A stretch of 63,827 bases of DNA, filler included, from Stramenopiles sp. TOSAG23-6 (GCA_900128565.1; 3 parts of 3 records of this genome joined end to end with filler, not necessarily neighbours in it); one strand, 5' to 3'. Positions 1 through 63,827 are shown, counted from the first letter of the whole stretch. Numbers and translations are program-made. The notes: generated by a model from the sequence alone, not told the origin.

Positions 1-86
1 AATATTTCAAAAAAAAAACTAAAATTTGTTAGGTACAAAATTTCGTACGAAAAAAAAATTGGAATTTTAAAAAAAATAAAACATAC
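1..86 (-). mobile_element. Repeat-family non-canonical intron, truncated by window start
   Basis: Minus strand AT|GTATGTTTTATTT..TTCGTACGAAATTTTGTACCTAAC..TTGAAATATT. Confidence 0.8.
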
Positions 87-22031: not shown

Positions 22032-22182
22032 GTATGTTTTATTTTTTTTCAAATTCGAATTTATTTTTTCATAGGGAATTTTGTACCTAACGATTTTTTT
22101 TGAAATATTTTTTTTTTTCAAATTCGATTTTTTTTCGTACGAAATTTTGTACCTAACAAATTTTAGTTTTTTTTTTTTGAAA
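22032..22182 (+). mobile_element. Repeat-family intron with doubled core running into the assembly gap
   Basis: Two TTTTGTACCTAAC cores; probably collapsed copies at a contig end. Confidence 0.7.
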
Positions 22183-30265: not shown

Positions 30266-30364
30266 CTTCTTTTTCCTCAAGATGAAATTTGGATTTTGAT
30301 CTTAATTCTATCTCGAATCTCGAATTTAGATACATTTAGATATTTGAATTGAAGGCGTACTAGC

Positions 30365-30418
30365 TAGGGTTGGGGGTTAGGGTTGGGGGTTAGGGTTGGG
30401 GGTTAGGGTTGGGGGTTA
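30365..30418 (+). repeat. Tandem 12-mer (TTAGGGTTGGGG)x~4.5, telomere-like, in a divergent promoter
   Basis: tagggttgggggttagggttgggggttagggttgggggttagggttgggggtta. Confidence 0.9.
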
Positions 30419-30504
30419 TGTTGTGTACAAAACGACTTCGAGGAACTGGACTGGATCTTCGAGATCTCTTTTGCTGCTAGTCTGTCTACCACACGACAGC
30501 AACT

Positions 30505-39750: not shown

Positions 39751-40943
39751 ATGCCAAAGCGCTGGAAGCGGCGACTCCGAACTCAAATGCGGTTGGCTCA
39801 CGAAGCCAATGCATTACGTGTTCCGAATTCTTCATTGAATAACTCAAAAGTGGTTGAATCAAAGCAGCCCCAGGAATATTTCCCACTTGACGAAAAAGGT
39901 GCTGCTCGTTTTCTTAATGTAGAAGCGATGTCGAAGTCAGATTCCCCTACTGATCTGACGTATCATAGTGCTGGATTACCCATATTATATGGTAGTTTAA
40001 TTGATCTTCCTATTCCTATTCAGGAAGGAAGTGCTGATCTCAAAATAAAGTTAGTCGCCACTGGGGGAGAAATACAGTATTCTGTATCTTGGGAGTCTCT
40101 CTGCCCAGTAAAGCATTTAGGTGTATCCCCTTCGAAAGTTCAGAAATACATTGAAAGTGAGACATCGCTTAAAAATTCTAATGAAAATTCTACAATACCT
40201 CCGAGTATTTTTGAAAAAGAAGAGTCACTAGAATTATTGCCCTTAACTAATCTGAAAGGTTCGGACAACATTTCCCTGTTTATTCCTAAAGCTGGTGTTG
40301 TTACATTACATGTGCAAAATAGTAGTACTACCTGGCCCGTAAAGGATGTACATTTTCAAAATTGAATTTCGAATTTTTTTTTTTCATAGAAAATTTTGTA
40401 CCTAACGATTTCTTTTTTTATCTACACTTTTTTTCACAATACATGATGATGTAGTATTACACTACGTTGTCTCTTTAGAACACATTTGTCCTTTGGTAAC
40501 GAAACGAAATATCATGTATTCACTTAAAAAGCAGTGTAACGATTTAAATTCGATATATCGTGATAGTCTTAGAGTTGTTGAAGAAAGTAGTCAAAATTTA
40601 GAAACACTTAGAAAGAAATTATGTATGTTTTATTTTTTTTTTTACAAAAAAATCGAATTTATTTTTTTTGAAAAATTTTGTACCTAACAAATTTAAGGTT
40701 TTTTTTTTNAAANATTTTTNCNAAANACATAACGCTGCTGAGATAGAACATGCTACGCTGGTGAATCGACTTACATTAGAGAAAGAAAGCATCGAATTAG
40801 TTCAAAGTAAACGAAATATAGCGTTGCTTGCAGGAATTGATATTAGAGATAAATTACTAGTTTTGCAGTACTTAACTACACGCGAAGAAAAGGTATGGAA
40901 TTGTGTATGTACAGATTGGCGATCTTATTGGTTCATGAAATAG
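39751..40943 (+). CDS. Hypothetical protein in three exons; second junction ambiguous
   Basis: ORFs 39751 and 40493 join exactly after removing 40348-40444; third ORF follows an n-containing intron. Confidence 0.55.
40348..40444 (+). mobile_element. Repeat-family intron GT...AT
   Basis: GAT|GTACA..TACCTAAC..CACAATACAT|GAT. Confidence 0.85.
40623..40730 (+). mobile_element. Repeat-family intron; 3' end contains ambiguous bases
   Basis: T|GTATG..TACCTAAC..cnaaanacat; frame is kept only if it ends at 40728 (AC). Confidence 0.6.
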
Positions 40944-43945: not shown

Positions 43946-44330
43946 TTATAGAAATAGTCTAAAAAAGGTGTAAAAAAATAAAATGATTGAAAAGACTAAA
44001 ATCGCTATAGGATAACATTTTTTAGAATATGGCGACTGATGAATATTGTTCACATTAGTCAAGTCCAATTCATTGACTACACTTCTAGCTTCAATCACCA
44101 ATAACGACGGAATTATATATTGAGAAAATATATTTTTGAAATTTGTTTTCAAAATTTTTGTTAGGTACAAAATGTACTAAGAAAAAAAAAATCGATATTG
44201 GTAAAAACTTCAATTATGAAAACGTACACAAACATTACTACAAGACCGGCAAATGCACCAGTAAACTTTGTTACATCTTGAACATTTCCGTCTACAAAAA
44301 AAACAAAGCACGAAATTAAGATAGGTCCAC
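43946..44330 (-). CDS. 3' exons of an amino-acid-transporter-like membrane protein (TMEM104-like), truncated by gap
   Basis: GPILISCF...NVQDVTKFTGAFAGLVVMFV-IPSLLV after intron removal. Confidence 0.55.
44115..44227 (-). mobile_element. Repeat-family intron GT...AT
   Basis: TTT GT|GTACG..TCAATATAT|A ATT. Confidence 0.8.
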
Positions 44331-44382
44331 ATGTATTTTGGAAAAATATTTCAAAAAAAAAAAACTAAAATTTGTTAGGTAC
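44331..44382 (-). mobile_element. 3' half of a repeat-family intron at a contig end
   Basis: GTACCTAAC..TTGAAATATTTTTCCAAAATACAT. Confidence 0.8.
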
Positions 44383-44482
44383 NNNNNNNNNNNNNNNNNN
44401 NNNNNNNNNNNNNNNNNNNNNNNNNNTTAATTAATTAANNNNNNNNNNNNNNNNNNNNNNNNNNNNNNNNNNNNNNNNNNNN
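44383..44482. other. Assembly linker
   Basis: N44-ttaattaattaa-N44. Confidence 0.95.
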
Positions 44483-44534: not shown

Positions 44535-45709
44535 GTAAATCCACCTTTATATGCAATTACTTTTGCAAATAGCGTAGAACATTTTGACAATGTACAAAAA
44601 TTTACGTCGTCTGGTGAAATCAAAGGAAATCAGTCTCCAACAAATCTTACATCCTATCCTAACAACAAAAATTCAAAATCGAGAAAAAGTTTATTATCAA
44701 AGTTACCGAGTTTGGTAAAATTGACCAATACATCAATTAATTTTAAAGAAGCTTCAATTTGTTCAATTTGTAACACGAGTTTTAATATATTTAATAGAAG
44801 ACACCATTGTCGTTTGTGTTATAATAGTTTGTGTGATAAATGTAGTAATAGTAGATTGACATTGTCCTCAAGTAAAGTTATGAAAAACACGAAAAACACA
44901 AATGAAGTAAGTCGAAATATTGGTGATATAAATGACGAGAAAGAATTATTACGTGCGTGTGATCATTGTGTCTACGCTTTAGTAAATCAACAAACGCAAA
45001 TTATGGAACAAAAGCAGAAAATCGAAACATTACAGTCAAAAAATACAAAGCAAAGTAAAATTCACACTGATGAAAAAAAACAATTAGACATTCAAATTGC
45101 TGATCTGGAGGGAAAACTCTCATTAGAACATGATGAATTATTAAGATGCAAACGTGCTATTCGACAGTACGAAGTTGATTCATCAAATATGCGAAAAATA
45201 ATCACTCATAAAAATGAAGAAATTAACAAATTGTGTAAAAAGAACCAAGAATCATTATTGAAAACTTTGACATCAAAACATAAAATAAAAAAAGAAGAAA
45301 AACAAACACAAAAAGAAATAGAACGTAGTAGAAATGTTTCTTTTGCAGATAGTGTACGTTTTCATTTCAATTTCGAATTTATTGTTTTTATACGAAATTT
45401 TGTACCTAACAAAAAACAATTTTGAAATATTTTTTCACAATACGTGTTGATATAATTGAGACAAAAGATACAAATGTATTTGTGAATTCATCAAATGATA
45501 AAATAAATGATTTGTTTCCAGATGATGAAATTGTGAATTCCCAACGAGACTTGGGACGCAATAGAATGTGTGTTTTATTTTTTCAAATATGAATTTTTTT
45601 TCGTACGAAATGTTGTACCTAACGAGTTTTTTTTTGAAATATTTTTCCAAAATACATAGGAGCTAGAAATGCTGAAAACAATGATGCTTGTCAGTGTATT
45701 ATTTCTTAG
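44535..45709 (+). CDS. FYVE-finger coiled-coil protein with C-terminal CaaX (5'-truncated); exons 44535-45353, 45446-45567, 45658-45709
   Basis: CSIC..SF..FNRRHHCRLC...LC..CS, RACDHC; spliced C-terminus ends CQCIIS*. Confidence 0.8.
45354..45445 (+). mobile_element. Repeat-family intron GT...GT
   Basis: AGT|GTACG..CACAATACGT|GTT; exon dinucleotide GT duplicated. Confidence 0.82.
45568..45657 (+). mobile_element. Repeat-family intron GT...AT
   Basis: AGA AT|GTGTG..AAAATACAT|A GGA; yields the CaaX terminus. Confidence 0.82.
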
Positions 45710-45823
45710 TGAAAAAACTCAGCGCGAATTTCGGTGACACATTTGTTAAAAAATTATATTTTTTCAGTGAATGTTTCAATAAAATATTTTAATAATAAAA
45801 ATTAGGCTTACATTTATCCTCCT

Positions 45824-46699
45824 TCAAGGATTAACCCATTGTGCAAAATAACCACCAAATATACTAGTCATACCCGCAGAGATCAAATTTACCTGAGTAT
45901 TACTAAGAAAGTCTGTGCCACATATTAAGTCACAATTCGGACCTGGAGAAGAAAAAACACATTTTTTTTCTTTTGAAAAGTAAGATACTTGAAATAACTG
46001 CCCCAGGATGGAATCGACAGCTGACCCGAAAAGACCACATATTGCCCCAATTACTGTGAGACTACACAGCTGCATGGCATCACCACCTACAAAGCAATGT
46101 CCACAAAATGCGTAAACAATACCAATAAACGCACCCCCGATTATACTTGCTATAGTCCCCACTAAAGAAACAGCTCCATTAGTTCCACGAGGAACAACTC
46201 TACACCCTAAAATTAAGCGGGGTTTAGTCATAGTTTCACCCCAATATGATGTCAAAACACCAACTTCAGATGCAAAAGTATCACCACAACAGCAAGCATA
46301 ATGGCCTAGATAGGCTGCGAGAAACCAACTAGCATTAGGAGAATCTGAAAAATTAAGAGCAATGTCATTTCCAAAGATAATGGAATATGCCAAACCTATG
46401 ATACAACCAATAATACTACAGCACAACACTTGCATTGGACCTCTAGCAGACTCCTTTTCAAAGTTAATATCGCAAGCGCGTTTTTCCTTACTACCAAATT
46501 TCGTCAAACAAGAACCAGATATGTAAAATAAGATAAGAGTTATCCCAAATCGATAAGATGCAACAAAAGAAGAGAGTCCAACAAAAAATGCGGCCTGAGC
46601 TCCATGAACGTTGAGACTCTTTCTACGTAAACCATGTAAACTAAGCACCACAGAAATAATTAATGCCAGAAAAATCCGAAAAGTAATAGCTTCAGTCAT
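45824..46699 (-). CDS. TMEM19: TMEM19/DUF92 membrane protein
   Basis: KSL...GA.AAF.VG, R...QVLC, GDT.ASE.G, VP.GTNGAVS..G, DS.LG, N..VN. Confidence 0.92.
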   Translation of the reverse strand: MTEAITFRIFLALIISVVLSLHGLRRKSLNVHGAQAAFFVGLSSFVASYRFGITLILFYISGSCLTKFGSKEKRACDINFEKESARGPMQVLCCSIIGCIIGLAYSIIFGNDIALNFSDSPNASWFLAAYLGHYACCCGDTFASEVGVLTSYWGETMTKPRLILGCRVVPRGTNGAVSLVGTIASIIGGAFIGIVYAFCGHCFVGGDAMQLCSLTVIGAICGLFGSAVDSILGQLFQVSYFSKEKKCVFSSPGPNCDLICGTDFLSNTQVNLISAGMTSIFGGYFAQWVNP

Positions 46700-47803
46700 T
46701 ATAAATAAAGCTAATTTTCCAAAAGGTAGGTAATAGAAAAATAAATTTATTGAATAAGAAACCAATAAGAGTGAATCCGCGCGAGGTTCTTGACCATTGC
46801 GAAACACGAAATACGTACTACAAAAAAATATCTCGTTACTCCCTCTCTTCAATGAAAAACAGACTGGACAAAATTAAATATATCAATCAGAGATTGAATA
46901 TATAAAATAATGCAGACCCAGTCAGAAAAAAAAATCCAAAATAAAAAAAAAACACGAGATTATTACAGTGACTACATATGAGTTCTAAAATTCAATATAA
47001 ATATTGAAAGTTAGAGATATGTAATATATAATAACTTCTGTTATTAGAAGATCCTACTTCAGTGACTACAATGTAATATGTAATAGCGTCAGAAAAAAAA
47101 GAATTGTCAAATTACTATCCAGTTGTGAAGGTTGGTGCCCACAATAATGAAAAGAAAAAAAAGAAAAATAAGAGAATCCGGTTCTAAGGATCGGTGCCTA
47201 TTCAGGGGTCGGTGTCCCCTGTCCAGTTTCTAAGGGTTTGGTGCCCATCCAGTTTCTAAGGGTTGGTGCCCATCCAATAATCGGGAAGACCTTTTGACCA
47301 GTTTTTCAATATTGACCGCGCAAAAACGCAAACCTGCTAGAGTTGACTATAGTATACAGTATACTGTATACTTAGTTAGTCTTAGTATACCTAGTCTTAC
47401 TAATACTATTTTTAATTTTTTTATGAAAGATACGTTGAACCCCACATTTGTTTTTTATTGTTTCTTTAACTATTACAAATGCACAAACCTGGTTTCAAGT
47501 AACAATGGATGAATCCTATTTGATAGATCAAGGTGATTATACTAGAAGTGTTTGGCGATGTATTCAATCATTGTAACAATGGTGGGTAAAGTCAAAGGCG
47601 CGGTACTGTGCGTACGATGAGATGTGGAGATTTATCTCTTGATGAATAATTTAATTGCTGAGCAAAGATAACCAACAGAAAATCATACATCTCTTACCGT
47701 ATTTTTATAATAGAAAGAAAATGAAAGAAATCGCAAAAACTTTTTTTAAGAAAGTATTATTTTTCATATGAAGCATATTAGCTAATATACCAGCTCATCA
47801 CGT

Positions 47804-48658
47804 CTATCTCCTAAATCGGAAAGACTCGTTTTTGCTCGATGGACTTGTTTGACTCGCATTCTTTGTCGGTTGATTCTTTTCGTTTTCCTTTTCTTTTTTG
47901 GCGACTTCCTTTTGTACAGTCGGTTGTGTATTTTCGTTTTCTTTTTCTTTTTTGGCGACAGGTTGATTCTTTTCGTTTTCTTTTTCTTTTTCTTCTTCCT
48001 GTTTGGCGACATTGACTACTTCCTTTTGTACAGCAACCTCATCACTTGCCTGTACCTTGTGGCTTTCTTCAATCTCGGCATTGTTTTTTACTGAAACGTC
48101 GTTTAGACGTTTGTCAGTTTGGGTAGCACTCGCCAAAGCTCCATCCGTCGTTGTAGAAGCCGAGTGTAAGTTCTCGGCAGCTGCGTTCCTCTCCTGATTT
48201 TTTTGCAATACGTTACCAGCGGCCATAGTTAGTACCTTTTGTCTTTGAGCATTAGCAGTGTTTTCAGATTTTTTTCTTTGCTTTTCAGTTTTATCTTTTT
48301 CAGCATTGAGCTTTTGAGTGGATTTTTTTTCTTCTTGTTCCTTGTCATTTTCAATCTTCTGGCTCGCCTCTTTTTTTTTTTTCGCTTTTTCAATTGCTCC
48401 TTGTACCTCATTTTCGTTTTCTTTTGTCTTAAGCTCATCTTTGACACTTTTAACTGCGTTTTCTTTACTCAAAGCTGTCGATGACGGCGCGGTATTCGAC
48501 CCTTCCGTTGTGGTTGCCGCTTGTTGTTCTTTCGGCCCTTTCGACTGGGGTTTCGCTTGTTGGGTTTGTTCAACCTGGGTTTCCTTTGCATTTTCCATTG
48601 ATAAAGAGCTTGACACAAGAAAAGCAAAAATAACTGGAACAATGAATAAGCTTTTCAT
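47804..48658 (-). CDS. Secreted K/E/Q-rich low-complexity protein
   Basis: Signal-peptide-like N-terminus; VAKKEKENEKNQP repeats. Confidence 0.65.
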   Translation of the reverse strand: MKSLFIVPVIFAFLVSSSLSMENAKETQVEQTQQAKPQSKGPKEQQAATTTEGSNTAPSSTALSKENAVKSVKDELKTKENENEVQGAIEKAKKKKEASQKIENDKEQEEKKSTQKLNAEKDKTEKQRKKSENTANAQRQKVLTMAAGNVLQKNQERNAAAENLHSASTTTDGALASATQTDKRLNDVSVKNNAEIEESHKVQASDEVAVQKEVVNVAKQEEEKEKENEKNQPVAKKEKENENTQPTVQKEVAKKEKENEKNQPTKNASQTSPSSKNESFRFRR

Positions 48659-49255
48659 TTTGTAAAATGTAAGAGTTTGATCTCTTTTATGAAAGTAGGT
48701 ATGGGTAGTTTCACTAATTGCGAATTCAGAACGTATCTTGGATGGATCCGATCTAGATCAGTCTCAAACGAGAAAAAGGCAAAAAAAAAGTCCTTCATTA
48801 AATTTTTGCGCAAACCTGTCACATCGACATCATCGAAATTCGAAAATTTCGAAATAATAATTTTGAATTTGAAATTTGAAATTTTGAAAAAAGAGGGAAA
48901 AAAGAGAGGATCTGAGTCGTCTACTCCCAGTAATCAGCAGTTGCAAGTTTGTACCAAAACGTGTTGCTTGTTCAGACCACTCCATTGGAGACAATATAAT
49001 GAACATGTCTTGTTGGATAAGGATATAATACAATACGATGTACTGATTCAACCTTTTAGAAGTAAAAATTTTGTATTTCGTGTCATTTTTGTATTACATA
49101 CGAAATTTTCTACTAAAAAACATCTTTATTTCGTGTGAATTATCTGATGAGAAGAACTCCAAAAGAAGTCAGTAGGAACTTCGAGGAACGCGAAAAACTC
49201 AAGCGAACTCAAGTGACGAATTTAGTGATCATTTATTGTTTTACTGCATCTTATA

Positions 49256-51028
49256 ATGGAAACAATGAAAAGTCTTTGTGTCATCATCCTTTTGCTCGGG
49301 TTTGTCACAACGAATGCAAAATTCATCGATTTTGAGTATGAGCTGTCGAAGCAAGACCCTACTTTTTACAAAGAGATCGACTGGTCAAACAGAATACTTG
49401 AGCACGAGGATGTGAAAGAAAGATGGACGAGAGAAGCGACTATCATGAGTGGATTTGGAAGACTTGAGTACGAACATAATAATTTTGCGTCAAAAGTTTA
49501 TGGTGGGTGTAACACAAAGAAACAAATCAAATTTGTTCCTAAGAAAGTAAAAGATTTTCAAAAGTTATCCTTTCATCACGACGGTTTGCGTGCGTTTGAT
49601 GAGGTATTTACGTTTAACGGGAATGCAAAGCAATTGAAAAAAAATGGAACTCTTCCTCAGACCCAAGAGAAATTATGGAAACAAATCAAAACTTCATTGG
49701 AGAAGAAAATGCCAAAATGTTTACCTCGACCTGGATATTGTGGCAAGTGTGAAGATCATCAAACAAAGAACGAATGTGAGGCCAAGGTAGACTCTACTAC
49801 TAATGAAAAACAAGGTTGTTCTTGGCATGAGAATTTGCACATCCACAAGATCAGCGAAGTATATCCTGCTCGTGAACATTTATGTACGTTTTCATCATTA
49901 ATGTAAGATTAATTTGCTTTGTACCAAATTTCCTTCCTAACAAATTTCAAATTTGATATATTTTTTTAGAATACATCCTCTGCAGAAGAAACATTCTGGA
50001 ATAAAATAAAGAATGAAGAAAAAATACAATATTCTAATGGGATAACCTGGAAAAAATATGCGGAAACACTTGCCTCGTTACATCGAGTGAGTAAATATAA
50101 TTTGCCTACTGTATTTTCAAAAACATCAAAGTACCAAGTTTTTGAAAAGCTTAATGAAAACGTTTCGATTCAAGACACATGTCCTGATATCAATATTATA
50201 GGAGGAATATCAGCGTTACCTAAAGTTCACGTTGATTACGTTGATGTATTTTTGGCCTATATGTATGAATCTGCAATTGGAGGAAGTTCAAAACCTGAAG
50301 ACAGACTTGCGTCTATTGATGAGAATAATAATCTTCGAACTCCGAACCTATATTTCACGGAAATGTACAACATATGGTCACCTTTACTTTCGCTTAAGAC
50401 TGATCCTCTTGCTTTCCGTGTTGAAGATAGTATTAACAAACCTGCGATTGAACTCAAAGAAGGACGACAAACATGCGACACTGTAAAAGATAAAAAATTT
50501 TGGTTTACCGAAGACTTAAATATTGGCCAAGGTCTCGTTTTCAAAACGAATAAAGTGCAACATACGTCAACGAATTCTATGGGGATTATGGATGAAGATA
50601 TCTCTGCAAAAACAAATTGTCGTATATCAAGTGAAAACCGTTTTTGGGTGTTAGTGGAGGAAGCACCGCGACCATATCCGGATCCTAATGATCCAGATGA
50701 GAAAGATCATGTGGCGGGTACTTGCAACGACGACTTGCCATTTATTCAAAGACAGGGAAAAAATCCATACTCGAAAAAAAAATCATGGTGGACACCAATT
50801 ATAATATATATAGTTGTTGTAACATGTGTATTAATTTTGGCAGCTATTATAATTATTTATATTATAAGAAGAAGAAAAAATGAAAAATCTACAACAGCTG
50901 ACAGTTCAGCAGCACCAACTCAACTAAGCAAAGGACCAGTTCAAAGGTCAAATACCCCAATGAATAATGTCCAAGTAATACCAGTTAAAGGGTTAAATAC
51001 CCCAATGAATATCGAAGTAATAGGGTAA
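49256..51028 (+). CDS. Type I membrane protein of unknown function; exons 49256-49883 and 49977-51028
   Basis: Signal peptide; TM followed by RRRK; two ORFs join after intron removal. Confidence 0.7.
49884..49976 (+). mobile_element. Repeat-family intron GT...AT
   Basis: TTA T|GTACG..TCCTAAC..AGAATACAT|CC; the AG 7 nt upstream would create TAA. Confidence 0.8.
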
Positions 51029-51257
51029 AGCATCGTTTCTTTTAGGCTGGGAATTTGAAAGTTTTTACGATAGTTTCATACGATAGCTTCATTTTATCTA
51101 CTCTATTTTTTGTATGTTATGAAAGACATAAGATGTAGATTAAAACATTTATCTGAACTATGGTCTTGTTGAAAATATATGGTACATACTTTTTTTATAA
51201 TAAAAAATATATCTTACGTGATACCTACTACATACTACTCCATACATCTTAGACAAA

Positions 51258-53653
51258 CTACAAAGGTATCTTCATTCTAGCAACAGAAACAGCATGATCC
51301 AGTAGAGTGCAATCTACATGATTAGGCAGTGTTACTTTTAATCTTGGCGTTCGTTTCATTTCACGTTTTATCGCATCTTCAGCATTATTATTTTTAGCCC
51401 ATGATCTACGAGAAATTCCATTGTTTACATCCCAGAGTAAGACACTCTTTGCACGTTCGGCAGCCTCTAACGTTCCATCCAATACAAGTCCAAATCCACC
51501 GTTAATAACCTCACCCCATCCGCAACCACCACCATTATGCAAAGCTACCCAAGTACATCCTCTAATAGCATCTCCGACAAAGTTTTGAACGGCCATATCA
51601 GCACAAAAATGAGAACCATCTTCAATATTACTTGTTTCTCTATATGGAGAATCTGTACCACTTACATCATGATGATCACGTGATAAAATTACAGGACCTT
51701 TCAACTTTCCCGATGCTATCGCTTCATTAAATGCCAATGCAATTTTTGTTCTACCCTCACAGTCCGCATAAAGTATTCGAGCTTCAGAGCCAACGACAAG
51801 GTTGTTACTTTCAGCATTTTCAATCCACATAATATTATCATTGAGCTGTGCAATTACTTTCGCAGGTGCAAGTTCCTTTTGCTCTGTCATTACTTGAGCA
51901 GCAATTGTATCAGTCATTTTCAAATCATCATGATTTAGACTTGTACATATATTGTAAAGAAATATTTTTTTTGTAAAATTTGTTAGGTACGAAATTTCGT
52001 ATCAAAAAAAAAATAAAATTGAAATAGATGATGAAAACGTACAAACCCATCGAAAAGGTCCAAAACCCAAAGAAAATATATCACCCATTATATCTTGAAC
52101 ATAAGAGGGATAACGAAAATTAATATTTGAATTATTTTCTTCAGCAGCATTACATTTCGTGTTTGTATTAACTTCTTCAGAGGAAACAATAGATACATCA
52201 GCACCAGCAGCAGCAGCTTCCTTTAAAAATGCATTTCCATAATCCCAAAAAAAAACTCCTTTTGAAGCTAAATTATTTATTGCATTCACCTGACGACGAA
52301 GAGATTTTTGGACGCACTCTTTAAACAATTTTGGATTTTTCACCATGAGTTCGTTCGATTCTTCTACAGATAAATCTACGGGGTAATAACCACCGGCCCA
52401 AGGGTTGTGGAGAGACGTTTGGTCTGAACCTAAATCAATCAGGACTTCTCCAGTTTTATCAGCAATAGAAGAAAATTTTTCCCAGACATCAACAATATTT
52501 CCATGGAAACCAATTGAAATAGATTCCTTTTTTGCTTTTGCTTCTCTCGTACGATGAATTAATTCATCAATATCAGTAATTTTTTCCAAGACCCATCCTT
52601 GCTCGTGTCTTTTATTTAAAGCATCTTCATTAACCTCACATAATATACCTACAGCACCACACACAACAGCAGCTTTGGCTTGTGCACCACTCATTCCACC
52701 AAGGCCAGAGGATAAATAAACTTTCCCTGATAAGTTGGATGACCCAAGATATTTACGACCAGCATTCAAAATGGTAATGGTGGTACCATGTATTTTGGAA
52801 AAATATTTCACAAAAAAATCGTTAGGTACAAAATTTCGTACGAAAAAACAATCGAAATTGAAAAAAAATAAAACATACATGAACTATACCTTGAGGACCA
52901 ATATAGCAATAAGAACCTGCTGTCATTTGACCATACATGGAGACACCCATACATTGTGAAAAATATTTCAAAAACTTGAAATTCGTTAGGAACAATATTT
53001 TTTTTGTACAAAAAAATAAACACAAAAGTCATGAAGATAACGTATAGAGCAAACATTTTCTCATAATCTTGTTTTGAACTATGATTTGGAATAACCATAC
53101 CATTCGTTAAGACACATCGAGGGGCACCAGAATGAGATGGATATATCCCTTGTGGGTGCCCAGAAGCCATAACAAGAGTTTGCTTATTATCCATTTGGCA
53201 TAAATAGTACATGAGTAAGTGATACTGTGCCCAGTTGCTAAGGACTTGACCATTACCACCATACGTAACAAGTTCATGCGGATATTGTGCAACACGATAG
53301 TCAAGATTGTTCATAACCATTAATATTATAGAAGCTGCTTGGTTACTCTCACATGGATATGTATCAAGTGGATAAGCTTTCATTTCATATTCTGTTGGTC
53401 GGAAGCGATACATGTATATATGACCATAATTTCGAAGTTCCTCCGCAAACTCTGGAGCAAGCTCAGCATGGAATTGAGACGGGAAATAACGGAGCGCGTT
53501 CGCAATAGCCTGCGATGTCTCTGATTTCGATAAGTTAGGCCGACGTTTGGGAGCGTGAGGCACTGATGAATCTCGTGACACAGGTGGTGGAAGAGGCGAT
53601 AATGGAATACCTGCAGGTAGAAGTTTTTTAAGAACAGAAGCAACGCAACTCAT
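51258..53653 (-). CDS. UROC1: Urocanate hydratase, eukaryotic type, with three repeat-family introns
   Basis: NNLD..VAQ.P.ELVTYGGNGQ, YGQMTAGSYCYIGPQGIVHGT, GLGGMSGAQ, DQTS.HN, DYGN, GFGPFRWVC, SRDHHDVSG, HNGGG. Confidence 0.97.
51947..52042 (-). mobile_element. Repeat-family intron GT...AT
   Basis: GTT T|GTACG..ACAATATAT|GT; restores GPFRWVCTS. Confidence 0.9.
52788..52878 (-). mobile_element. Repeat-family intron GT...AT
   Basis: CAT|GTATG..AAAATACAT|GGT; restores PQGIVHGTT. Confidence 0.92.
52949..53045 (-). mobile_element. Repeat-family intron with AT donor (AT...AT)
   Basis: GCT CT|ATACG..CACAATGTAT|G GGT; restores MFALGVSMYGQ. Confidence 0.85.
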
Positions 53654-54102
53654 CTTTAACTAATATTAAATATGGTTTCTATTCAATATCAAGATGGTAG
53701 AATAGTAATCAACCAAAAGACCAATTTTTAGAATCTCAACAGATTAGATTGAGATTGTTTTTTTTAGTAGGAACACATAAATGATGTCAACATAAAAACA
53801 CTATTCGATTTGAGATTGAGATTTCGTGATTTCCACGGTTTCGTGTAATTTCGCAAACAATTCTCACGTGTAATCTATTGTGTTAATTCTGTTTACCTAT
53901 GTTTTGTTTTTATCGGTTTTGATGTATTTACTTTGTTGTATTATGCATGTTTATTACTTATAAATAAAAATTGGCTTGCTAAAAATTTGTTTCACTCATA
54001 CAAATTCCATAGCTAATACCATTCAAAATAATCGGAGACTTTTACCAAAATTTCGATTTTTTTGGAGACTTTTACCAAAATTTCGATTTTTTTTTTCTTA
54101 CT

Positions 54103-55172
54103 TTAGCTAAATGGACTAGAAAAGTTATAGGCATCCGGGTCAACAATAGTGACTATATCACCTTTCGATTGTTTAATTTCAGATCCTGTGTCGCTCCACA
54201 TGTATAGTAAAAAATATTTGGAATTTAAATTTTTGTTAGGTACAAAATTTTCATACAAAAAAAAATTTTAATTTAAAATTTCGAAACGTACATCCATTTT
54301 TGACAAACTTCATTATATTCCCACACTCCAGAATGTGAATAATTTTTAAATTTTCGAGATATAGAAGGGGTAAATTTTCTTGGTTTGTATGAAAAATCAT
54401 CTTCTTGGCTATTCGGTGTTGAAACTCTTTGAGTAATAGGAGCACCCCATTTATCTCTTACAATAGTTTGTTGTTTTAATGAATTAGCAACTAAATTTTC
54501 ACGACGAACTTTTTGCAACTTTCTAAATTGCTGCTGAGGACTCAAATATTGTTTCTGTCTTGACATTTGTTTGTTGTTTTTAATTGTTCTTCTCTTTCGA
54601 TGTTTTTCAAATAATTCCATTTGTTTTCTTTTCTCAGTTTCTGTAAAGGATACACAATTATTCCATATTGTCTTTTTTAAAAGTTTAGGGTGATTTGGCA
54701 TTTCACCACCCCAGTGCTGTCTCTGAGGTTGCTTCGCTACTGAATCAAATAGACTTTGATCCAACTCAAATTTTGATGCTTTTGGCCTAAATTTCAGATT
54801 TTTGCGAGGTAAAACTTCAGCTCTGAAATTATATTTCATACCTTGCAAGGGAGGGTCGTTTGCCTTTTGTTGATTAGAACTATTAAAACATCTCTCATTT
54901 TGATTTCGTGTTGTTGTTGAATTCCAAAGTTTCCGTCGAACTTGCAAAATATCTTTTCGTTTTGATTGAAGGACATACTCTTTTGCTAATCGTGCTTTCT
55001 CAGGAATATCAGAGATATGAAAAACACTTTCATTCTTAGGGTAGTGGATTCTATCTCCACGACAACTTCCAATCTGAAACTTGGCCCGGGTAAAATCGTG
55101 AGTGCTTGAAGTAGAAACTTTCTTTTTAATAGGAGTTCCTCCGCTCAGACTTTCAATACTCCGACGAGACAT
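54103..55172 (-). CDS. Hypothetical basic protein; exons 55172-54292 and 54199-54103
   Basis: ORF continues HSGVWEYN..WM-WSDTGS..GD..T after intron removal. Confidence 0.7.
54200..54291 (-). mobile_element. Repeat-family intron GT...AT
   Basis: TGG AT|GTACG..TACTATACAT|G TGG. Confidence 0.85.
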
Positions 55173-55509
55173 TATTATTAATACTAGTAATTGATTCTTA
55201 TTCAAAAAATACTAGAAGCGTATCTTAATATTGTATAAAAGGAAAAATAGCGGGAAAGTAGATATAATATTGAAGGACTACTAAGTATTAAATTTTGTAA
55301 CCGTGACTGCCCTTGACTGGCTAAATAAATTTGAAATTCAACTGGAAATCGCGCGACTCGAGCGCGAGCGAGAGACCTTCAATCGTCGTCGTCGTCGCAA
55401 AAAAAAATTATCAAAGTCGAAGAGAGACTGCATAACAAACAAGAGTTTATAGTTGTTTCGCAAATTAGTAAAAGCGGCATATTATCGACTAATAGTTTGG
55501 CCATACACA

Positions 55510-56484
<975 letters not shown>

Positions 56485-56806
56485 TAATTTTTATTCACTT
56501 GGTGAAGTTTTGATTTTATATGTAATAATAATAATAATATTGCGTTTATTTTGTACGATTTCTTTTGTTTTTCTTTCTTATTTTTTTTTCCCAAAAATGG
56601 CACAAAGCTGTTAATGAAAAAAAAGAAAAAAAAAACGGAAATTTATAGAAAACGTATCATAAATACAGCAACAGCAACAAGTTCTCTCTTCGCCAGTACT
56701 TACACAAAGAAGAAGAATACAAAAGATTGTCACCAGTATTTATACAAAGAAGAAGAATACAAAAAAATCTCTCGGTTTTGAAAAAGTTGGCAACAACTTC
56801 AACTAA

Positions 56807-59455
56807 ATGCCTCGTATAACCGTAATCAAAACCGATGGTGTGATTGGTGATCCACTACAATCAATGGTTACATTATCTGAGCCTAGTATTCATAACTACA
56901 AACTAGCTGATAAAAACGCGGAGTCAGTCGAATTTCAGCAAATGGAAAATATGGTTCGCGGAAAGTATCTTGGTAGTCCTGTTTCGAAGAAAGCTTGGGG
57001 CGTATCACCACCAACGCATGCAGCTAGAGTTCGAAGTGCTTGGTCTAACCCAAAACCTCATAATAATCCGCAAAGTCCAAGGTCAAGGACTTTAAAAGTA
57101 GATAATTCTATTGATACTTTGGATTATAAGCACCCTTCTGTTTCAGCGCAACAAAGTCCGAGATTTCGTAAGAACAAAAATACAAACACCGACTTACTTC
57201 AAAATGAAAATGATATATCAGACCAACAAAATAAAAAACGAATGCGTAAGCCAATCACACGCAACGCGTGGGAGAATAAAACTTTTGAGCTTTCAACTAA
57301 ACAAACAATTTCAGAAAAAGTCAATGCTCTACAAGATATGTTGAAATCTCTTCAAAATGAACAAGAAGAAAATGAGCGACGCCAGCGAGAAACACTTATT
57401 CACTCTAGCGTTGAAGAAAAAGAATCTTTTGGAAATAGTGATCTATTAGAATCCAAGAATGAAATCTCTGATGAGGATATTAACCTTGACGCCTCTGAAG
57501 CGATAACAAATCCTCTGACTCAAATGAGTATAGGAGATAGAGAAAAAGATGCTGTATTTCAAGTATTACAAGCCACACTAAAACGTCACAGTCGTATCGT
57601 TGATATGATAATAGATGATTTAGAGTCTGCACTATCTGTATTAGATCCAGAAAAATCAGGTTATATTCCTGCTGAAATATTCAAAGAGCAACTTTTTGAT
57701 GTAGGTGTAGGTCTAGAAAAATCACAGTGCAATGATATATCTATACTTTTATCAGTAAAAGAGTCTTCGATAAATAAGATAAATGAAATATTACCTGAAA
57801 ATGATGTAATGTATGTGCATTACGAACCATTTATTAAATGTTTGCGTGATGAATATATTCGAATTGACCGGGAGAAACGTGCACGAAAAAAAACACAACT
57901 CATCAACAAAAATATGGCCGATATTAAAGACGACACAGAGTCTTCCACTTGGGCCTCGAAGATGCGTACCTGTTGGACGGATGATGAAAGTAAGAGATGC
58001 GATTTGTTCAAAGATGAGCAGAGGAAAATGAAGAAAAGAAATAGAAGTCATCGAATTACAATCCCGAAACCTTTCAGTTTTTGTCAACGAGACGATAAAG
58101 CCGAGGAAAGATGGATGGCACGAAAAGAAGAAATTTTTCAAGAAAGAGAAGAAAAACTACATAACGAAATTAGTGCAAATGGTGGGGTATTTCACGCAAG
58201 GTCTATTCCAAGAACAACAACAGATGCGTTGTATGAGAGAATCAAAGAAGATCAAGATAATNTGAGAAAAGAAAATATTCGAGCTAGAATTCAGTATCAT
58301 CAGAATCAAATCTCTGGATTTCCTGGAATGATTCTTCGTGATGAGACCATTGCTCAACGTAAAGCAAAACGGGAAAAAAAACGAAACGAACAAAAGCGTA
58401 AAGATAATACAAAAACAAAACAAATAGTAGCAAGACCTGCTCCTCAACGACCTGAACTATCCTTCGAAGAATTACAAGAGCAGAAAGAAGAAAGCAGAAG
58501 ACTTCGAATAGAACGCAGAGCACAAATTATGTTACATACATCTAAACTTCCACCGCGTATGCAATTACATGCGGATAAGATGAAATTAAAAATGGAAGAA
58601 GAAGAGTTAGATATTAAATCTAAACTAGACTCACATATACCAAAAACACGGAATATACCAAATTTTAGTCAACTTCATTCGCAGTGGGATGCAAAGAGGG
58701 CATCTCGTCGAAAGAATCACAAAGTAACAAAACCTAAACCTTTTTCATTTGAAAATGAAAAATCACGACGAAAGATTGAAGAGAAAAAGCGAAAGACACG
58801 AAGACATGAGCGTCTTAAAAGACAGGCGGAAAATACAACAAATACAAATAAAAGAGATTCATCAAAACCAAATCAAAACTCTGTAGATTCAGAGAGTTCA
58901 ATATCGTCTCCATTTTCATCTCATGTGCAAAATGTTCATCCAAATGTTTCAATGACAAGATCAATGGAATTACGAATGAACAAAACACATGAGCTTCTTC
59001 GAAAGCGCCAGAATGATATTGAAAGAGAAAAGAGAGACCAACAAGTAAGGAAGAAACGCGAAGAAGAGGCGAGGAAACGTATTACACCTATCATTAATGC
59101 GATGGAGTATAGAAGAACTCATCGAAGAGGTCACGTTACTCTTGAAATTGCAGAAAAAAAAGCAAGAGCAAAAGCTTTAAACTTTAAAGCAACAGCAAAG
59201 AAACAAATGGAAGATTTGAAAAAGCGCTTGGAAGAGAAGATTGCCCAGAGACCATTACTATTCGAGCGGGAAATGATTTCTGCACAAAAGCAAAAGGCTC
59301 GGATGGGAGCATTATCGTCAGCAGCAAATGCTATATATGGTAGAGATGTCGGTACTGCTGGTATTGATAGATCTTCGTCTTCTGATAAATTTGGAATTTT
59401 TGAAGAGGAAGAAAGAGAAATTCTAGGTGACCAAAGTGATAGCGATGAAGAGTAA
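56807..59455 (+). CDS. FAM161-like (UPF0564) centriole/cilium protein
   Basis: ITIPKPFSF, FHARSIP, RA..ML..S.LPPRM, P.F..LH, TKPKPFSF, RPLLFER. Confidence 0.7.
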   Translation: MPRITVIKTDGVIGDPLQSMVTLSEPSIHNYKLADKNAESVEFQQMENMVRGKYLGSPVSKKAWGVSPPTHAARVRSAWSNPKPHNNPQSPRSRTLKVDNSIDTLDYKHPSVSAQQSPRFRKNKNTNTDLLQNENDISDQQNKKRMRKPITRNAWENKTFELSTKQTISEKVNALQDMLKSLQNEQEENERRQRETLIHSSVEEKESFGNSDLLESKNEISDEDINLDASEAITNPLTQMSIGDREKDAVFQVLQATLKRHSRIVDMIIDDLESALSVLDPEKSGYIPAEIFKEQLFDVGVGLEKSQCNDISILLSVKESSINKINEILPENDVMYVHYEPFIKCLRDEYIRIDREKRARKKTQLINKNMADIKDDTESSTWASKMRTCWTDDESKRCDLFKDEQRKMKKRNRSHRITIPKPFSFCQRDDKAEERWMARKEEIFQEREEKLHNEISANGGVFHARSIPRTTTDALYERIKEDQDNXRKENIRARIQYHQNQISGFPGMILRDETIAQRKAKREKKRNEQKRKDNTKTKQIVARPAPQRPELSFEELQEQKEESRRLRIERRAQIMLHTSKLPPRMQLHADKMKLKMEEEELDIKSKLDSHIPKTRNIPNFSQLHSQWDAKRASRRKNHKVTKPKPFSFENEKSRRKIEEKKRKTRRHERLKRQAENTTNTNKRDSSKPNQNSVDSESSISSPFSSHVQNVHPNVSMTRSMELRMNKTHELLRKRQNDIEREKRDQQVRKKREEEARKRITPIINAMEYRRTHRRGHVTLEIAEKKARAKALNFKATAKKQMEDLKKRLEEKIAQRPLLFEREMISAQKQKARMGALSSAANAIYGRDVGTAGIDRSSSSDKFGIFEEEEREILGDQSDSDEE

Positions 59456-59564
59456 ATGATGATATGGGAGTTTTATTGTAAAATGTTCCAAATATAAAAC
59501 ATATTAATTACTAAAATATATTATAACATATATTTTAGTTTGTAATTCGTCTATTTTTGAATAT

Positions 59565-61922
59565 CTAATTTGTACTATTTACAGATTGATTCGATTTAAT
59601 ATGACTGCGTAAGCTGAACGTTTCCATTTTTCCAGTTACATGTTTCACCTGCATAGAGGAAAAACATTTCAATAACTCAGGAACATATGTTCTGTGTGTC
59701 AATTTTGAAGATACATTTTTACACTGTGGTACAGCAACAAAAAGTGTTGAAACCGACGTCAACCGATTTCTCAAAGTCTCAAATGCAGAACTTTGAGGTA
59801 AAATCATTAAAAGGCCGTACATAGATTTCATTAAATAAACATGTTGCATGCCACTACCATTGAGTAATTGTAGACGTAACTGTAAGAAAATAGGCGACTC
59901 TAAAAGTTGTACTAATTTGTCAATTTGCATTAAAAATCCAAGAGTAACATCCACTTGAGCAAATTCATTGATTAACTCAGAGGCTAAATGGTAATTTTGT
60001 GACAGCAAGCATAAACTAAATAAAGAAACAGGATTGTGACAAAACGACATATATAAGGTACGAAATATGGGGTATCCATCACCTTTCTCCCCTTTCTCAC
60101 AACTATGGCGTAATCGTTGACGAAGTTCAACTAATTCATCTGATGTGAGAAGAATTAAACTAAGACTTTGAATAATAATTCGTGCAAATGGGAGGTCATT
60201 TTCGTGTAAAAGAATCTTAGCTATTGTTGTATATATTTTCTCACTGTTCAGATGTAGACATAAATTTCTTATAATAAGCGATCCACGCTGTTCTAATAAA
60301 TTTCTATTTGTACGAAATAAACGAATTAAATCGGTTAAAACACGTTCAAAATGATCATCGCTCGATGCAATACGAGAAAGCATGCATTGTGAAAAATATA
60401 TTTTTTTTACTGTAAAACAATTCGTTAGGTACAAAATGTTTTACCAAAAAGAAAAAAAAAATGAAAGTAATGATGAGGGTTAGGGTACACTTCAAGATCT
60501 AACAAAACAACTTCATCTGAAGCATCCATCAAAATTTCATCTGTAAATATTGGAAACAATTCATCAATCATAATAAGAACTTGAGCTGAGTCTTTTTCAA
60601 GTAACATAGACACCCAAACATTGTGAAAAAATACATCAAATTTGAAAGACGTTAATAAACATTTCATTGGATATAAAACAATTTGATATACAAATAAAAA
60701 AAAATCAAATTCAAATGTGAAGTACAACTTAATGAAGCCATTCTTGTCATTTCAACAGGACTACTAAGAAAAGACTTGAGATGAAGCAATAATGGTTTAA
60801 AATTTAATACAGTTTCACTTTCCTTTACCAAGAGTAACAAATCTTCATTAGTTTGTTCAGCATTTTCACGAATTTCACGTTCTTCATCTGCCAGAAGTTG
60901 AGCAACTGCGTTCAATAATGTCGCGTACAACTTTTTTAGTCTTTCACCACCCAAGTGAATAATATCACGAATCCATTGTATTGCAGTCAAGTATTGTGAA
61001 AAAATATTTCAAAAAAAATCATTAAGTACAAAATTTCGTACGAAAAAATAAATAAATTCGAAATTAAAATGAAAACGTACAATCTGTTAAATCTCGCACG
61101 ACTAGAATTACATTGTTCCACAAGTATTTCAACTATTGGTGAAAGCTCAAGTGTTGATACATCACTTTGTTTGATTTCTTGAAGAAATTCACAAAGGGCT
61201 TGGTCTGCTTGTTGTCGAATTTCTCGAATATCATCACTAAGCATATTAAATAATCCTTCCAAGAAATTTGGTAAAAAATCCAACATATTTATAAATGGTA
61301 CAGAATCCAGTAGAACGACCCATCCAACTAAAAGTTGCCGGATATAAGGATTACGAGTTTTAAGCTTTCTTTGTAAAAGAGGAATAAAATGTTCAACTGC
61401 AAATGTGTCTGATTCTGTGACAATTTCTTTTATGAAACGATCAAGTAACTGTGCGCCATTCTTTACGTCGACATCAACATCAGAATATAACTCACAAAGA
61501 CCAGCAAATATTTCATTGAAATGACCAAGAATTCGTTGGCGAGCGACTTTGGCGATATTAAACAAAGCCTCACATGCGTAGTAACGAACTCGTGTTTCGG
61601 GGTCCTGAAAACAGTGAATTACTGGATTTAGTAATAAAGGTAAATACATATATATATCTTTCATTAAACCAATTGCAACCGCAGCTAACCCTATAAGCCC
61701 CCCCTTACGATGATTTGCACTAGCAGAACGCGTAAATTGATCACTTAATAGCTTTATTACACCTTCAATCTCTTTGGTCTTACATTCATTTGTTAGACTT
61801 TTTATTGTCGTCTCTACCGTTAAAGCCGCAGATTTGCGACGGTCATAAGAACGATCACCCAACATTCGCTGAACCTGCTCCGGAATAAGATCATATGATC
61901 TAGAATTCGCTGCGTCGACCAT
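59565..61922 (-). CDS. VAC14: VAC14 scaffold of the PIKfyve complex with three repeat-family introns
   Basis: L.DR.YD.RK.AAL, RKGGLIGLAA, RVRYYACEAL.NI.KVAR, V.NGA.LLDR, LLE.RGSLIIR.LC, QIDKLVQLLESPIF..LRLQLL. Confidence 0.97.
60382..60488 (-). mobile_element. Repeat-family intron GT...AT
   Basis: GAA GT|GTACC..CACAATGCAT|G CTT; restores DLEVLSRI. Confidence 0.88.
60616..60725 (-). mobile_element. Diverged repeat-family intron GT...TT
   Basis: AGT T|GTACT..CACAATGTTT|GG; restores RMASLSWV. Confidence 0.82.
60989..61080 (-). mobile_element. Repeat-family intron GT...TT
   Basis: AGA TT|GTACG..CACAATACTT|G ACT; restores NRLTAIQWI. Confidence 0.88.
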
Positions 61923-62244
61923 GGAATTAGTATTAACACTAGCGAATGAACTATGAAACAAGTAACTAACTACTTACAACGTATGCAACAGTTAGTACAC
62001 TATTATTTTAACTTCAATGATAAATAGGGTCTCTTGGGAGATTAGATCATAGTGGCCAAGCTCGACCGTATTGATTGACTACTTCTTCTACAGTCTTCTT
62101 GACAGTCTTCTTGACCATTCGCTCCAATAAATGAGGGTTAGGGTTTTAGATGGATGAATTTGAAAATTTCAAAATTCAATTTCCAAGGTTAGAATAAATA
62201 GCTTGAGCACGTAGGAGTTGATTTTGAAAAAATTATCAATAAAA

Positions 62245-63761
62245 ATGTTCCAAAGTAGTTTCACTTTTGGACCCGAACCTATTAACACATCAAAAGCAAA
62301 GCCAAATGTGCATGCTGATTACTACCTTGACAAAAAGTTGGGTTCTGGTACATATGGTTCAGTGTACCTCGCAAAGCGTAAAAAAGATGGATTACTGTTT
62401 GCTTGCAAAGAACTTCCAATAGGAAGGGTAAACAGTCTTGCAAGTCTCAATCATGAAATCAGTATAATGAAATTGTTGGACCATGAAAATATATGCTCCC
62501 TTATAGATCACTACCAATCTCGGTTATATGTTCATATTATTTTAGAATTGTGCAGTGGTGGTGAAATTTTCCAGAAGGTTGTTGAACAAGGAAGTCTTTC
62601 TGAATTTCACGCAATGTTTGTAGCACAACAGACTCTCCAAGCGCTTGAGCATTGTCACTCTAAAAATGTTGTTCATCGTGATTTAAAGCCTCAAAATCTT
62701 CTTTTATACGAAAAGGCAGAAAACATTGAAAATGCGACAATAAAAATTGTAGATTTTGGTGTTTCTAAATGTCTTCGAGATCGAACACTTTTACGAGAGG
62801 TAATTGGAACTGTGAGTTACATGGCTCCAGAAATATTCAGTAAAAGAGGTTATGGCCCAGCTGTAGATTTATGGAGTATGGGAGTTATATTATATCAGAT
62901 GCTTACTGGGGAAAAACCTTTTAGTAACAAAAGAGATATCATGGTAAATGTACGTTTTTATCATGAATTTCGAATTTAGTTTTTTTTCATACAAAATTTT
63001 GTACCTAACGAAATTTTTTTATGAAAAAAATTTACAATACATACCGTGGATTTCGATAAGCCTATTTTTAGAGTTCTATCACCCGACTGTCGTAATTTTC
63101 TCATGTGTCTTTTACAGAAAGATCCATCAAAAAGGCCTTCTGCCAGTGGTGCACTGCACCACCGTTGGTTTCAAATTCATTCAAATGAATTACCAATTCT
63201 TCCAAATTCGATCCTGGAAAGTTTGAAAGCTTATACAGCTCAGACTAGTTTTCAAAAACATTTAGTCCAAGTATTATCTGAAAAATTGTGTCTACGAATA
63301 CTTTATATTTTTTACAAAAGAATTATACAATATTCATTTTTTTTTTTAACCCTTTTTTTTAATCATTTGTATTATAATTGATACATTAAACACATTCTAT
63401 GGTAGTGATAAAATACATAATCAATTTAAACAAATGGATACTAATGGCGATGGTTTTATTGATATGCACGTACGTTTTTATCTTTCATTTTAAAAAAATC
63501 TTTTTTTTTTCATACGAAATTTCGTACCTAACAATGAATTTCAAATTTGACATATTTTCTACTCTACACGAATTACAAAACGCTTTATTGAACTCTAAAA
63601 ATGAAGAAACTGCAAATGAAGTATCTGTTCTCTTAGCAAGTGCTGACTTCAATTTAGATCACCGAATTTCTTATCGAGAATTAATGATGTCAGTCATGTC
63701 ACGTGCTTTATATTTACATTCTGATCGTCTAAGTGTACTGAGTGATAAAATCATGATAGAT
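62245..63761 (+). CDS. Calcium-dependent protein kinase (kinase plus EF-hands), 3'-truncated by window end
   Basis: LGSGTYG, ACK, ELCSGGE, HRDLKPQN, DFG, YMAPE; EF-hands DTNGDGFIDMHE and DFNLDHRISYRE. Confidence 0.9.
62950..63042 (+). mobile_element. Repeat-family intron GT...AT
   Basis: AAT|GTACG..ACAATACAT|ACC GTG GAT. Confidence 0.85.
63290..63386 (+). mobile_element. Highly diverged intron, probably the same family; boundaries approximate
   Basis: T-rich ~97-nt interruption ending GATACAT; needed to join the kinase tail to the EF-hands. Confidence 0.45.
63470..63569 (+). mobile_element. Repeat-family intron GT...AC
   Basis: CAC|GTACG..ACTCTACAC|GAA; restores a 12-residue EF-hand loop; AC duplicated. 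Confidence 0.88.
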
Positions 63762-63827
63762 GCAGGTTTAATTTTTTTTTCAATTTCGAATTTATTTTTC
63801 GTACGAAAATTTGTACCTAACGATTTT
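63762..63827 (+). mobile_element. Repeat-family intron truncated by window end; possible GC donor
   Basis: GAT|GCAGGTTTAATTTTTTTTTCAATTTCG..TTCGTACGAAAATTTGTACCTAAC aligns to the consensus. Confidence 0.65.

Follow-up and report, generated by a model that had tools for sequence, protein, structure and literature searches.

A family of short introns with canonical donors and non-AG 3′ ends that probably copy a 2-bp target-site duplication

How can a mobile element enter a coding exon and leave the message again as an intron, and what serves as its 3′ splice site if no AG is used? This question is raised by a stretch of 63,827 bases from Stramenopiles sp. TOSAG23-6 (GCA_900128565.1; the whole stretch analysed is called the window hereafter), in which introns of about 90 nt with a GT donor recur in unrelated genes and end mostly in AT. 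A first-pass annotation had observed that the last two bases of these introns repeat the last two bases of the preceding exon. It had interpreted this likeness as a 2-bp target-site duplication (TSD) around a mobile unit GTA...TAC, one TSD copy serving as the acceptor. The observation is confirmed here and the interpretation is partly supported. On balance, the family probably consists of non-autonomous introners akin to miniature inverted-repeat transposable elements (MITEs), with a 2-bp TSD whose downstream copy forms the non-AG 3′ end.

Alignment and an nhmmer profile census of the 63.8 kb give 28 complete copies of 88-112 nt (about 90 nt). About eight others are partial or degenerate; among the partial ones, four are cut short at a window end or at one of the two assembly gaps. 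A 20-base internal motif has 26 matches in the window at no more than three mismatches, where 0 are expected. Coordinates and a single degenerate 3′ motif served to place the boundaries, three numeric corrections being made; the reading frame decided one boundary that falls in an (AT)n run, and one diverged copy was included manually. The host genes are unrelated (urocanase, Vac14, Rab, kinase, helicase and others), with near-identical introns at unrelated positions, and each of the 28 counted copies is preceded, on its own strand, by 40 or more open codons, which places them in sense orientation in their host open reading frames (ORFs).

The copies start with a donor-like GTAYGT that begins at the first base of the element, G occupying intron position +1 in 26 of 28. 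The two others (11531-11628 and 52949-53045, both on the − strand) open with ATACGT instead of GTACGT, so that A is the first intron base and T the last; both sit in genes with intact frames. T-rich tracts are found in the copies, as is an internal TACGAAATTTYGTACCTAAC block holding a yeast-like branch motif, TACCTAAC, located roughly 30-60 nt 5′ of the intron 3′ end. The conserved 3′ block of the family is TTTTYCAMAATAC. A tight, young-looking subfamily starts with GTATGTTTTATTTT and ends with CCAAAATAC, and a second, more diverse one starts with GTACGTTTTCAT and ends with CACAATAC. The termini GTA/TAC proposed earlier for the mobile unit fit these data; they are inverted over 3 bp only, with weak subterminal similarity in the consensus. 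RNAalifold, run on 24 copies, finds 0 conserved pairs and thus no structure.

Where the 3′ end comes from is best seen in the copies that do not end in AT. There are four of them (the exon-end dinucleotide is given before the slash and the intron-end dinucleotide after it):

45354..45445, +: family intron, GT/GT, reading exon ...AGT / GTACGT...AATAC GT / GTT
60616..60725, −: diverged family intron, TT/TT, Vac14 gene
60989..61080, −: family intron, TT/TT, Vac14 gene
63470..63569, +: family intron, AC/AC, EF-hand gene

Each of these four 3′ dinucleotides equals its own 5′ flank (p = 1.3e-4 for reaching 4 rare matches, or 19 matches in total, when the 3′ dinucleotides are shuffled 1,000,000 times across the copies). 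All four pairs lie where the first-pass annotation had placed them, and the co-variation of rare dinucleotides on both sides that it reported holds. Over the 28 copies, the 5′ flanking dinucleotides are AT 15, GT 6, TT 3, AC 2, GC 1 and CT 1, and the 3′ dinucleotides are AT 24, TT 2, GT 1 and AC 1. The two agree in 19 copies, namely the four rare pairs and 15 AT/AT copies, the earlier statement that most copies are AT/AT thus standing for 15 of 28:

14540..14647, −: family intron
32016..32107, +: family intron, young subfamily, DEAD-box helicase gene
34837..34931, −: family intron
35329..35421, −: family intron, young subfamily
35487..35582, −: family intron
35791..35885, −: family intron
40348..40444, +: family intron
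40623..40730, +: family intron; contains 5 N, which makes the frame test unreliable
42169..42268, −: family intron, young subfamily
45568..45657, +: family intron, young subfamily, start GTGTGT
49884..49976, +: family intron
52788..52878, −: family intron, urocanase gene; supported by frame, homologues and an RNA piece end at 52786
54200..54291, −: family intron
56281..56379, +: family intron, Rab gene; supported by the C-terminal GGCC and an RNA piece end at 56277
62950..63042, +: family intron, protein kinase gene

The 3′ dinucleotide is the reverse complement of the 5′ one in 0 of the 13 copies with a non-AT 5′ flank, so that the repeat is direct; it neither extends the inverted termini GTA...TAC nor belongs to a palindrome ATGTA...TACAT. 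Since AT is its own reverse complement, only the rare pairs separate these two arrangements. The remaining nine of the 28 pairs are mismatched:

11531..11628, −: family intron, GC/AT, start ATACGT; 300 open codons with the cut at +2, against 9 and 24
11926..12030, −: family intron, AC/AT; 3′ end in an (AT)n run, boundary set by frame
28590..28698, +: diverged family intron, GT/AT, Rieske gene
35025..35119, −: family intron, GT/AT, synonymous TCG/TCA
41761..41874, −: family intron, GT/AT
44115..44227, −: family intron, GT/AT
51947..52042, −: family intron, TT/AT, urocanase gene; informative for the cut register, RNA piece end at 51942
52949..53045, −: family intron, CT/AT, start ATACGT, at a urocanase junction
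60382..60488, −: family intron, GT/AT, Vac14 gene

As previously annotated, most of the mismatches (7/9) are confined to the first base. On the exon side the difference is synonymous in the three instances singled out earlier (52042, GTT/GTA, Val; 35119 and 28590, both TCG/TCA, Ser), and four other mismatches would change Val/Ile, Val/Ile, Val/Met and Leu/Met. The suggested NT target preference is borne out by 25 of 28 copies, in which T occupies exon position −1. The flanking repeat is locus-specific and TSD-like, seen as such in four copies, with 9 of 28 pairs mismatched.

What leaves the message can be judged from reading frames. In a frame test of 28 rows, which includes a degenerate copy at 10308-10398, a cut 2 nt past TAC is the only one to keep the frame in 22 rows; of the six others, three are settled by junctions, one has the (AT)n boundary and is still AT-terminal, one is full of N and one is the degenerate copy. 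For the GT/GT copy 45354-45445, the cut at +2 is the sole frame-keeping one, with 48 open codons against 3 and 1. In the Rab gene, the same cut at 56281-56379 yields the tail GGCC followed by a stop. Homologues of urocanase lead to the same register. The correct frame at 52788-52878 gives ...GPQGIVH/GTTITILNAG, in which GIVH/GTT is identical in homologues; the junction FRWV/CTS at 51947-52042 is also identical in them, and the +2 cut at 52949-53045 yields MFAL/GVSMYGQ, gapless in the alignment. Compared with P0026 and P0048, the urocanase spliced from four exons shows no gap at any of its three junctions, and registers that add or drop codons are excluded for this reason. A search with the urocanase exons gave no match above 61% identity and thus yielded no transcript-derived protein of the same organism for reading the mismatched junctions.

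RNA contigs give a further view of the junctions. Run X7 is polyA, X8 is a polyA library and X2 is DNA, X2 being perhaps not independent of the assembly. The contig joints are mostly between different copies, short intron-skipping joints are unlisted, and X8 is without three joints at repeats. Three of the 24 listed RNA pieces adjoin a family intron and hold further letters; they end at 56277 (end of X7 record 22), 51942 (X8 record 26) and 52786 (X8 record 27). The leftmost placements computed for the expected joints are identical to these three positions. The same convention is upheld by an ordinary GT-AG intron of the Rab gene, at the leftmost joint placement of which (55637) X7 record 21 starts. 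The window holds three such introns:

55516..55638, +: ordinary GT-AG intron in the same Rab gene as 56281-56379; gives the Rab N-terminus
18667..18798, +: GT-AG intron restoring an ORF
18301-18370 (or 18301-18397): GT-AG intron restoring an ORF

Because the host also splices ordinary GT-AG introns, the AT end is a property of the family. Frames, homologue junctions and RNA contig ends therefore agree and support the earlier claim that the element and the next two bases are removed from the message, a removal that restores the frame, is protein-neutral and uses no AG.

Matched pairs give the same mRNA if the register is shifted by two bases, with an intron NN-GTA...TAC, of AT...AC type in most copies, and the downstream dinucleotide kept in the mRNA. 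AT-AC is a known pairing of first and last intron bases, and two copies begin with ATACGT. The two registers can be told apart at the mismatched TT/AT copy 51947-52042, where the GT...AT register predicts an RNA end at 51942 and the AT...AC register one at 51948; the end of X8 record 26 at 51942 favours the GT...AT intron. Moreover, GTAYGT is a conserved donor-like block, and the shift would turn the variable bases into the first two of the intron. U12-type introns have the donor [AG]TATCCTT and a branch motif TCCTTAAC close to the 3′ end. These motifs are absent from the aligned copies, which combine the donor GTAYGT with TACCTAAC at roughly 30-60 nt from the 3′ end, and the shifted register is very improbable. 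Excision from DNA instead of RNA, as for ciliate internal eliminated sequences, would follow the same logic, with precise removal of the element and one copy of the flanking dinucleotide, and it could appeal to DNA contigs that join an element 3′ end to an element 5′ start. Such sequences are TA-bounded, removed from DNA and independent of orientation. Here, the flank is AT, not TA; all 28 counted copies are in the sense strand, and the element has donor and branch-site motifs. The long ORFs of the window are open under standard stop codons. Finally, X2 DNA contigs enter the elements at the depth of their unique flanks (records 4-6), which indicates that the elements are present in DNA. Excision at the DNA level is thus scarcely credible. 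A TA...TA register of this type was also considered for the cut and rejected: it would leave 6 extra nt, and the homologues are without a two-residue insertion at GIVH/GTT.

In X2, dozens of short contigs join an element 3′ end (...TAC AT) straight to an element 5′ start (AT GTA...), with a spacer of 0-4 bases. The commonest of these end-to-end joints is ...TACAT+ATGTA... (16 contigs), and one example joins 45654-45658 to 56277-56279; in each joint the shorter side has less than 30 letters, which flags it as weak. They may reflect tandem insertion into regenerated AT, micro-exons, or forms that are circular or concatenated. The summed contig depth of X2 in element bins is about 1000 times that of unique bins, a ratio that is not a copy number and is not used as such; the lower element-to-exon ratio of the polyA run X7 is likewise not used.

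Several points weigh against a 2-bp TSD acting as acceptor, and they bear on two other explanations of the flanks. In 18 of 28 copies, among them all four rare pairs, the downstream exon opens with G, against a background of 18%. This would be expected from a 3-nt duplication NNG around an element TAYG...TAC, in which the upstream TSD copy would end with the G that starts the intron; the target would thus supply the donor G, as it does in introners of the Symbiodinium type. Donor recruitment from the TSD is indeed documented for other introners in the available portions of the literature (10.1101/2020.10.14.339549; PMC9860276). However, the G is missing in 10 of 28 copies, including 3 of the 7 complete young copies, where the TSD should be intact, and G at exon +1 is also an ordinary acceptor-context or target preference. 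Furthermore, a 2-nt TSD leaves perfect GTA/TAC inverted termini, whereas a 3-nt TSD leaves none. Such a longer duplication seems unlikely. Of the 2-bp TSD put forward by the first-pass annotation, the locus-specific direct repeat thus stands; the duplication rests on four informative copies, which the 3-nt version fits too.

The other explanation dispenses with a duplication: AT would be element-borne, the element having spread after AT/NT either as DNA without a TSD or by reverse splicing, a route proposed for fungal introners (in the accessible part of PMC9860276), and the rare pairs would be coincidental. Here the bias at the 3′ end is telling, as 24 of 28 copies end in AT whatever their 5′ flank and the nine mismatches all have a non-AT exon side and an AT intron side (binomial p = 0.004). 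Since all nine keep the intron-side AT, AT is favoured beyond what a decaying TSD would give. The copies are strictly genic and on the sense strand, and their terminal inverted repeats are just 3 bp. The 15 AT/AT copies are equally well explained by an AT target preference with an element-borne AT, or by a palindrome ATGTA...TACAT, which leaves only four copies informative for the duplication. The matching of flanks in young copies, which had been proposed as a check, is complete (7/7 complete copies of the young subfamily are AT/AT), and precisely for that reason this subfamily carries no locus-specific signal beyond the AT bias. Mismatched copies have lower profile scores as a trend only (median 35.6 vs 40.2 and 44.0; one-sided p = 0.10). 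Nevertheless, genic bias is weak evidence, because a compact genome has little intergenic space, and the four non-AT ends each repeat their own 5′ flank. Spread without any duplication is accordingly distinctly unlikely. A Helitron-like insertion between A and T without a TSD was rejected on other grounds, as it cannot yield GT/GT, TT/TT or AC/AC.

It should also be noted, on the same side of the balance, that splicing is deduced from where three RNA contig pieces end, their second halves being unseen, and that RNA-library contigs holding element ends plus flanks also occur, as loose ends. No empty site, no autonomous element and no long element between family ends was seen in the window, and everything comes from one 64-kb window and four informative copies. 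The role of the TSD copy as acceptor is therefore upheld in part: GT, TT and AC are tolerated in 4 of 28 copies, and AT is favoured in its own right. The preference for AT at the intron end could result from selection on splicing, or AT could be partly element-borne. Either splicing selection converts the 3′ copy to AT or keeps it so, or the exon copy alone drifts freely.

Under the preferred reading, that of a MITE-like introner with a 2-bp TSD, an element of about 90 nt with 3-bp inverted termini GTA...TAC would insert into coding exons through a cut staggered by 2 bp; its target would usually be AT or, in broader terms, an NT with G after it. Repair would leave the target dinucleotide on both sides of the element. 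The spliceosome would then cut before the G of the element and two bases past its last C, and the downstream copy of the duplication would leave with the intron, so that the mRNA would regain the sequence that preceded insertion. The 3′ splice site would be non-AG, mostly ...TAC AT/G, with GT, TT and AC tolerated. AT would be additionally favoured at this end, older copies keeping or acquiring it while the exon-side copy may drift at synonymous or conservative positions. A bolder possibility, which we advance tentatively and consider doubtful, is that the second splicing step reads no acceptor dinucleotide here and that the cut is set by position, two bases past the TAC block. If true, a 3′ cut set by position, whatever the two bases are, would allow the transposon to remove its own sequence from the transcript wherever it had inserted, the 3′ end being free while donor and branch site are canonical. 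AG-independent 3′ choice beside GT-AG introns in the same genes would then amount to a second mode of acceptor recognition, for instance via a diverged U2AF-like factor as in Fritillaria. In that case the DNA joints with a spacer of 0-4 nt might represent circular intermediates, or elements inserted in tandem into regenerated AT.

How does this family compare with known intron types? The following likenesses and differences are with the available portions of the papers cited. Introners that carry their donor, such as the Chrysochromulina family and those of Micromonas and Aureococcus, take their acceptor from the TSD (PMC9860276; PMC11282704). As in these organisms, the elements of the window are short and non-autonomous, they occupy many genes, and they bring one splice site themselves while the duplicated target provides the other. 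As in the Chrysochromulina type, the element and one TSD copy are spliced out, and mRNA length is unchanged. There, however, TSDs are of 3-9 bp and the acceptor is a canonical AG, whereas here the duplication is of 2 bp (or 3) and the ends are AT, GT, TT or AC. In Fritillaria borealis, MITE-derived introns have a non-AG 3′ end that copies the preceding exon bases and are removed by the U2-type spliceosome beside rare GT-AG introns (PMC11282704; PMC13326754). The window resembles that case in the probable transposon origin of its introns, their non-AG ends copying the preceding exon bases and the ordinary GT-AG introns alongside. Fritillaria borders are mostly AG-AC or AG-AT, with an exonic TAC and a non-canonical donor; in the window the borders are GT...AT, TAC lies inside the intron, and donor and branch motif are both canonical, the acceptor alone deviating. 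Moreover, Fritillaria is an animal, whereas the window has the appearance of a compact protist-like genome.

The introner elements of Amoebophrya, too, are non-canonical introns present in many copies, and short direct repeats overlap their borders with the exons (PMC7789003). They have inverted repeats of 8-20 nt forming hairpins, direct repeats of 3-5 nt, highly variable boundaries and a non-canonical donor (PMC7789003); the present family differs by its 3-bp termini, the lack of conserved structure (0 pairs) and a fixed GT donor. In the introner-like elements of Symbiodinium and Polarella, TSD copies likewise act as splice sites and several registers are possible, but the TSDs are of 4-8 nt and the recruited bases are always GH or AG (10.1101/2020.10.14.339549). 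Euglenid nonconventional introns share the non-canonical borders and often a short repeat at both junctions (PMC11282704); they need a stem joining their ends and have no canonical donor, in contrast to the canonical donor and the 0 RNAalifold pairs found here. As expected of introners, the family shows repeated introns in unrelated genes, frame-restoring removal and a locus-specific duplication (four copies). In the literature searched, no account was found of introns that combine a canonical donor with an AT end derived from a TSD, or of an introner with a TSD of 2 bp, supplementary tables excepted (such a family could be listed in Dataset S2 of PMC12130899 or SI Table 6 of PMC9860276). The intron passages available from two single-cell stramenopile papers make no mention of such introns. 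An orthonectid origin, suggested by the 'Spirit' repeats of that group, was dropped because PMC6543705 gives about 4.9 introns per gene and a median intron length of 57 bp there, at variance with the window.

Besides the 28 counted copies, the window holds the following:

1..86, −: partial copy (5′ part, AT flank), truncated by the window start
10308..10398, −: end-degenerate copy, antisense and in frame inside a NUDIX ORF, outside the count
22032..22182, +: 5′ flank AT, internal partial duplication; the copy extends into an assembly gap
42939..43034, −: diverged copy with AT 5′ flank, 3′ boundary not fixed, outside the count
44333..44383, −: 3′ part of a copy beyond an assembly gap, end ...TAC AT
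63762..63827, +: partial copy, AT flank, start GCAGGT, truncated by the window end

The copy at 10308-10398 was left uncounted because it is not in an ORF on its own strand. With two flanking bases it makes 93 nt, or 31 codons, open in the frame of the NUDIX ORF (9408-10487, +); it may be translated, or spliced in the other orientation. The comparator intron 18667-18798 ends in TTTTCACAATCATAG, which is near the family 3′ block and AG-terminal. nhmmer does not class it as a family member, and it may be an old copy that gained an AG, or a chance likeness. The two assembly gaps, 22183-22282 and 44383-44482, are N runs flanking a TTAATTAATTAA linker, and since both have family elements at their borders, the assembly breaks in the family repeat. 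The central 20-mer had no exact match in the viral contigs or the JGI metagenome contigs scanned.

The window itself (35% G+C) is that of a gene-dense eukaryote. Its longest ORF has 1,823 codons, and the spacers between ORFs are short. Eukaryote-typical domains include ankyrin, Rab/Ras, DEAD helicase, the primase large subunit, Vac14, FAM161, urocanase and protein kinase. The public runs that contain it are seawater metagenomes and metatranscriptomes. Rfam at the gathering threshold and a tRNA scan found no match in the window. Four tandem units of a telomere-like GGGTTGGGGGTTA repeat lie at 30370-30420, in a spacer of about 180 nt that separates the divergent genes 29057-30301 (−) and 30481-32100 (+). 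The low-complexity repeat at 47860-48010 (−) is coding, within a gene, and is not an intron; its part 47924-48006 was skipped as repeat in read placement. Close to the urocanase stop (ORF end 51258, −), the polyA-library contig X8 record 25 aligns from 51247, 11 nt past the stop, with 25 unaligned letters before the aligned part, and urocanase may thus have a very short 3′ untranslated region.

Introners are the best-documented source of new introns. In the known cases, as far as the available portions of the literature describe them, the duplicated target supplied a canonical AG or GY; only Fritillaria and Amoebophrya depart from this, and they do so at both intron ends. The family described here keeps a textbook donor and branch site and ends in a copy of the dinucleotide that was hit, which separates acceptor recognition from the other splicing signals in a natural system with a copy number that is probably very large. 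If the pattern holds genome-wide, it extends the range of introner TSDs down to 2 bp, explains how coding sequences can be colonised with almost no target constraint, and offers a tractable test of how strictly a 3′ AG is required. In practice, gene prediction that insists on AG will get most genes of this abundant marine organism wrong.

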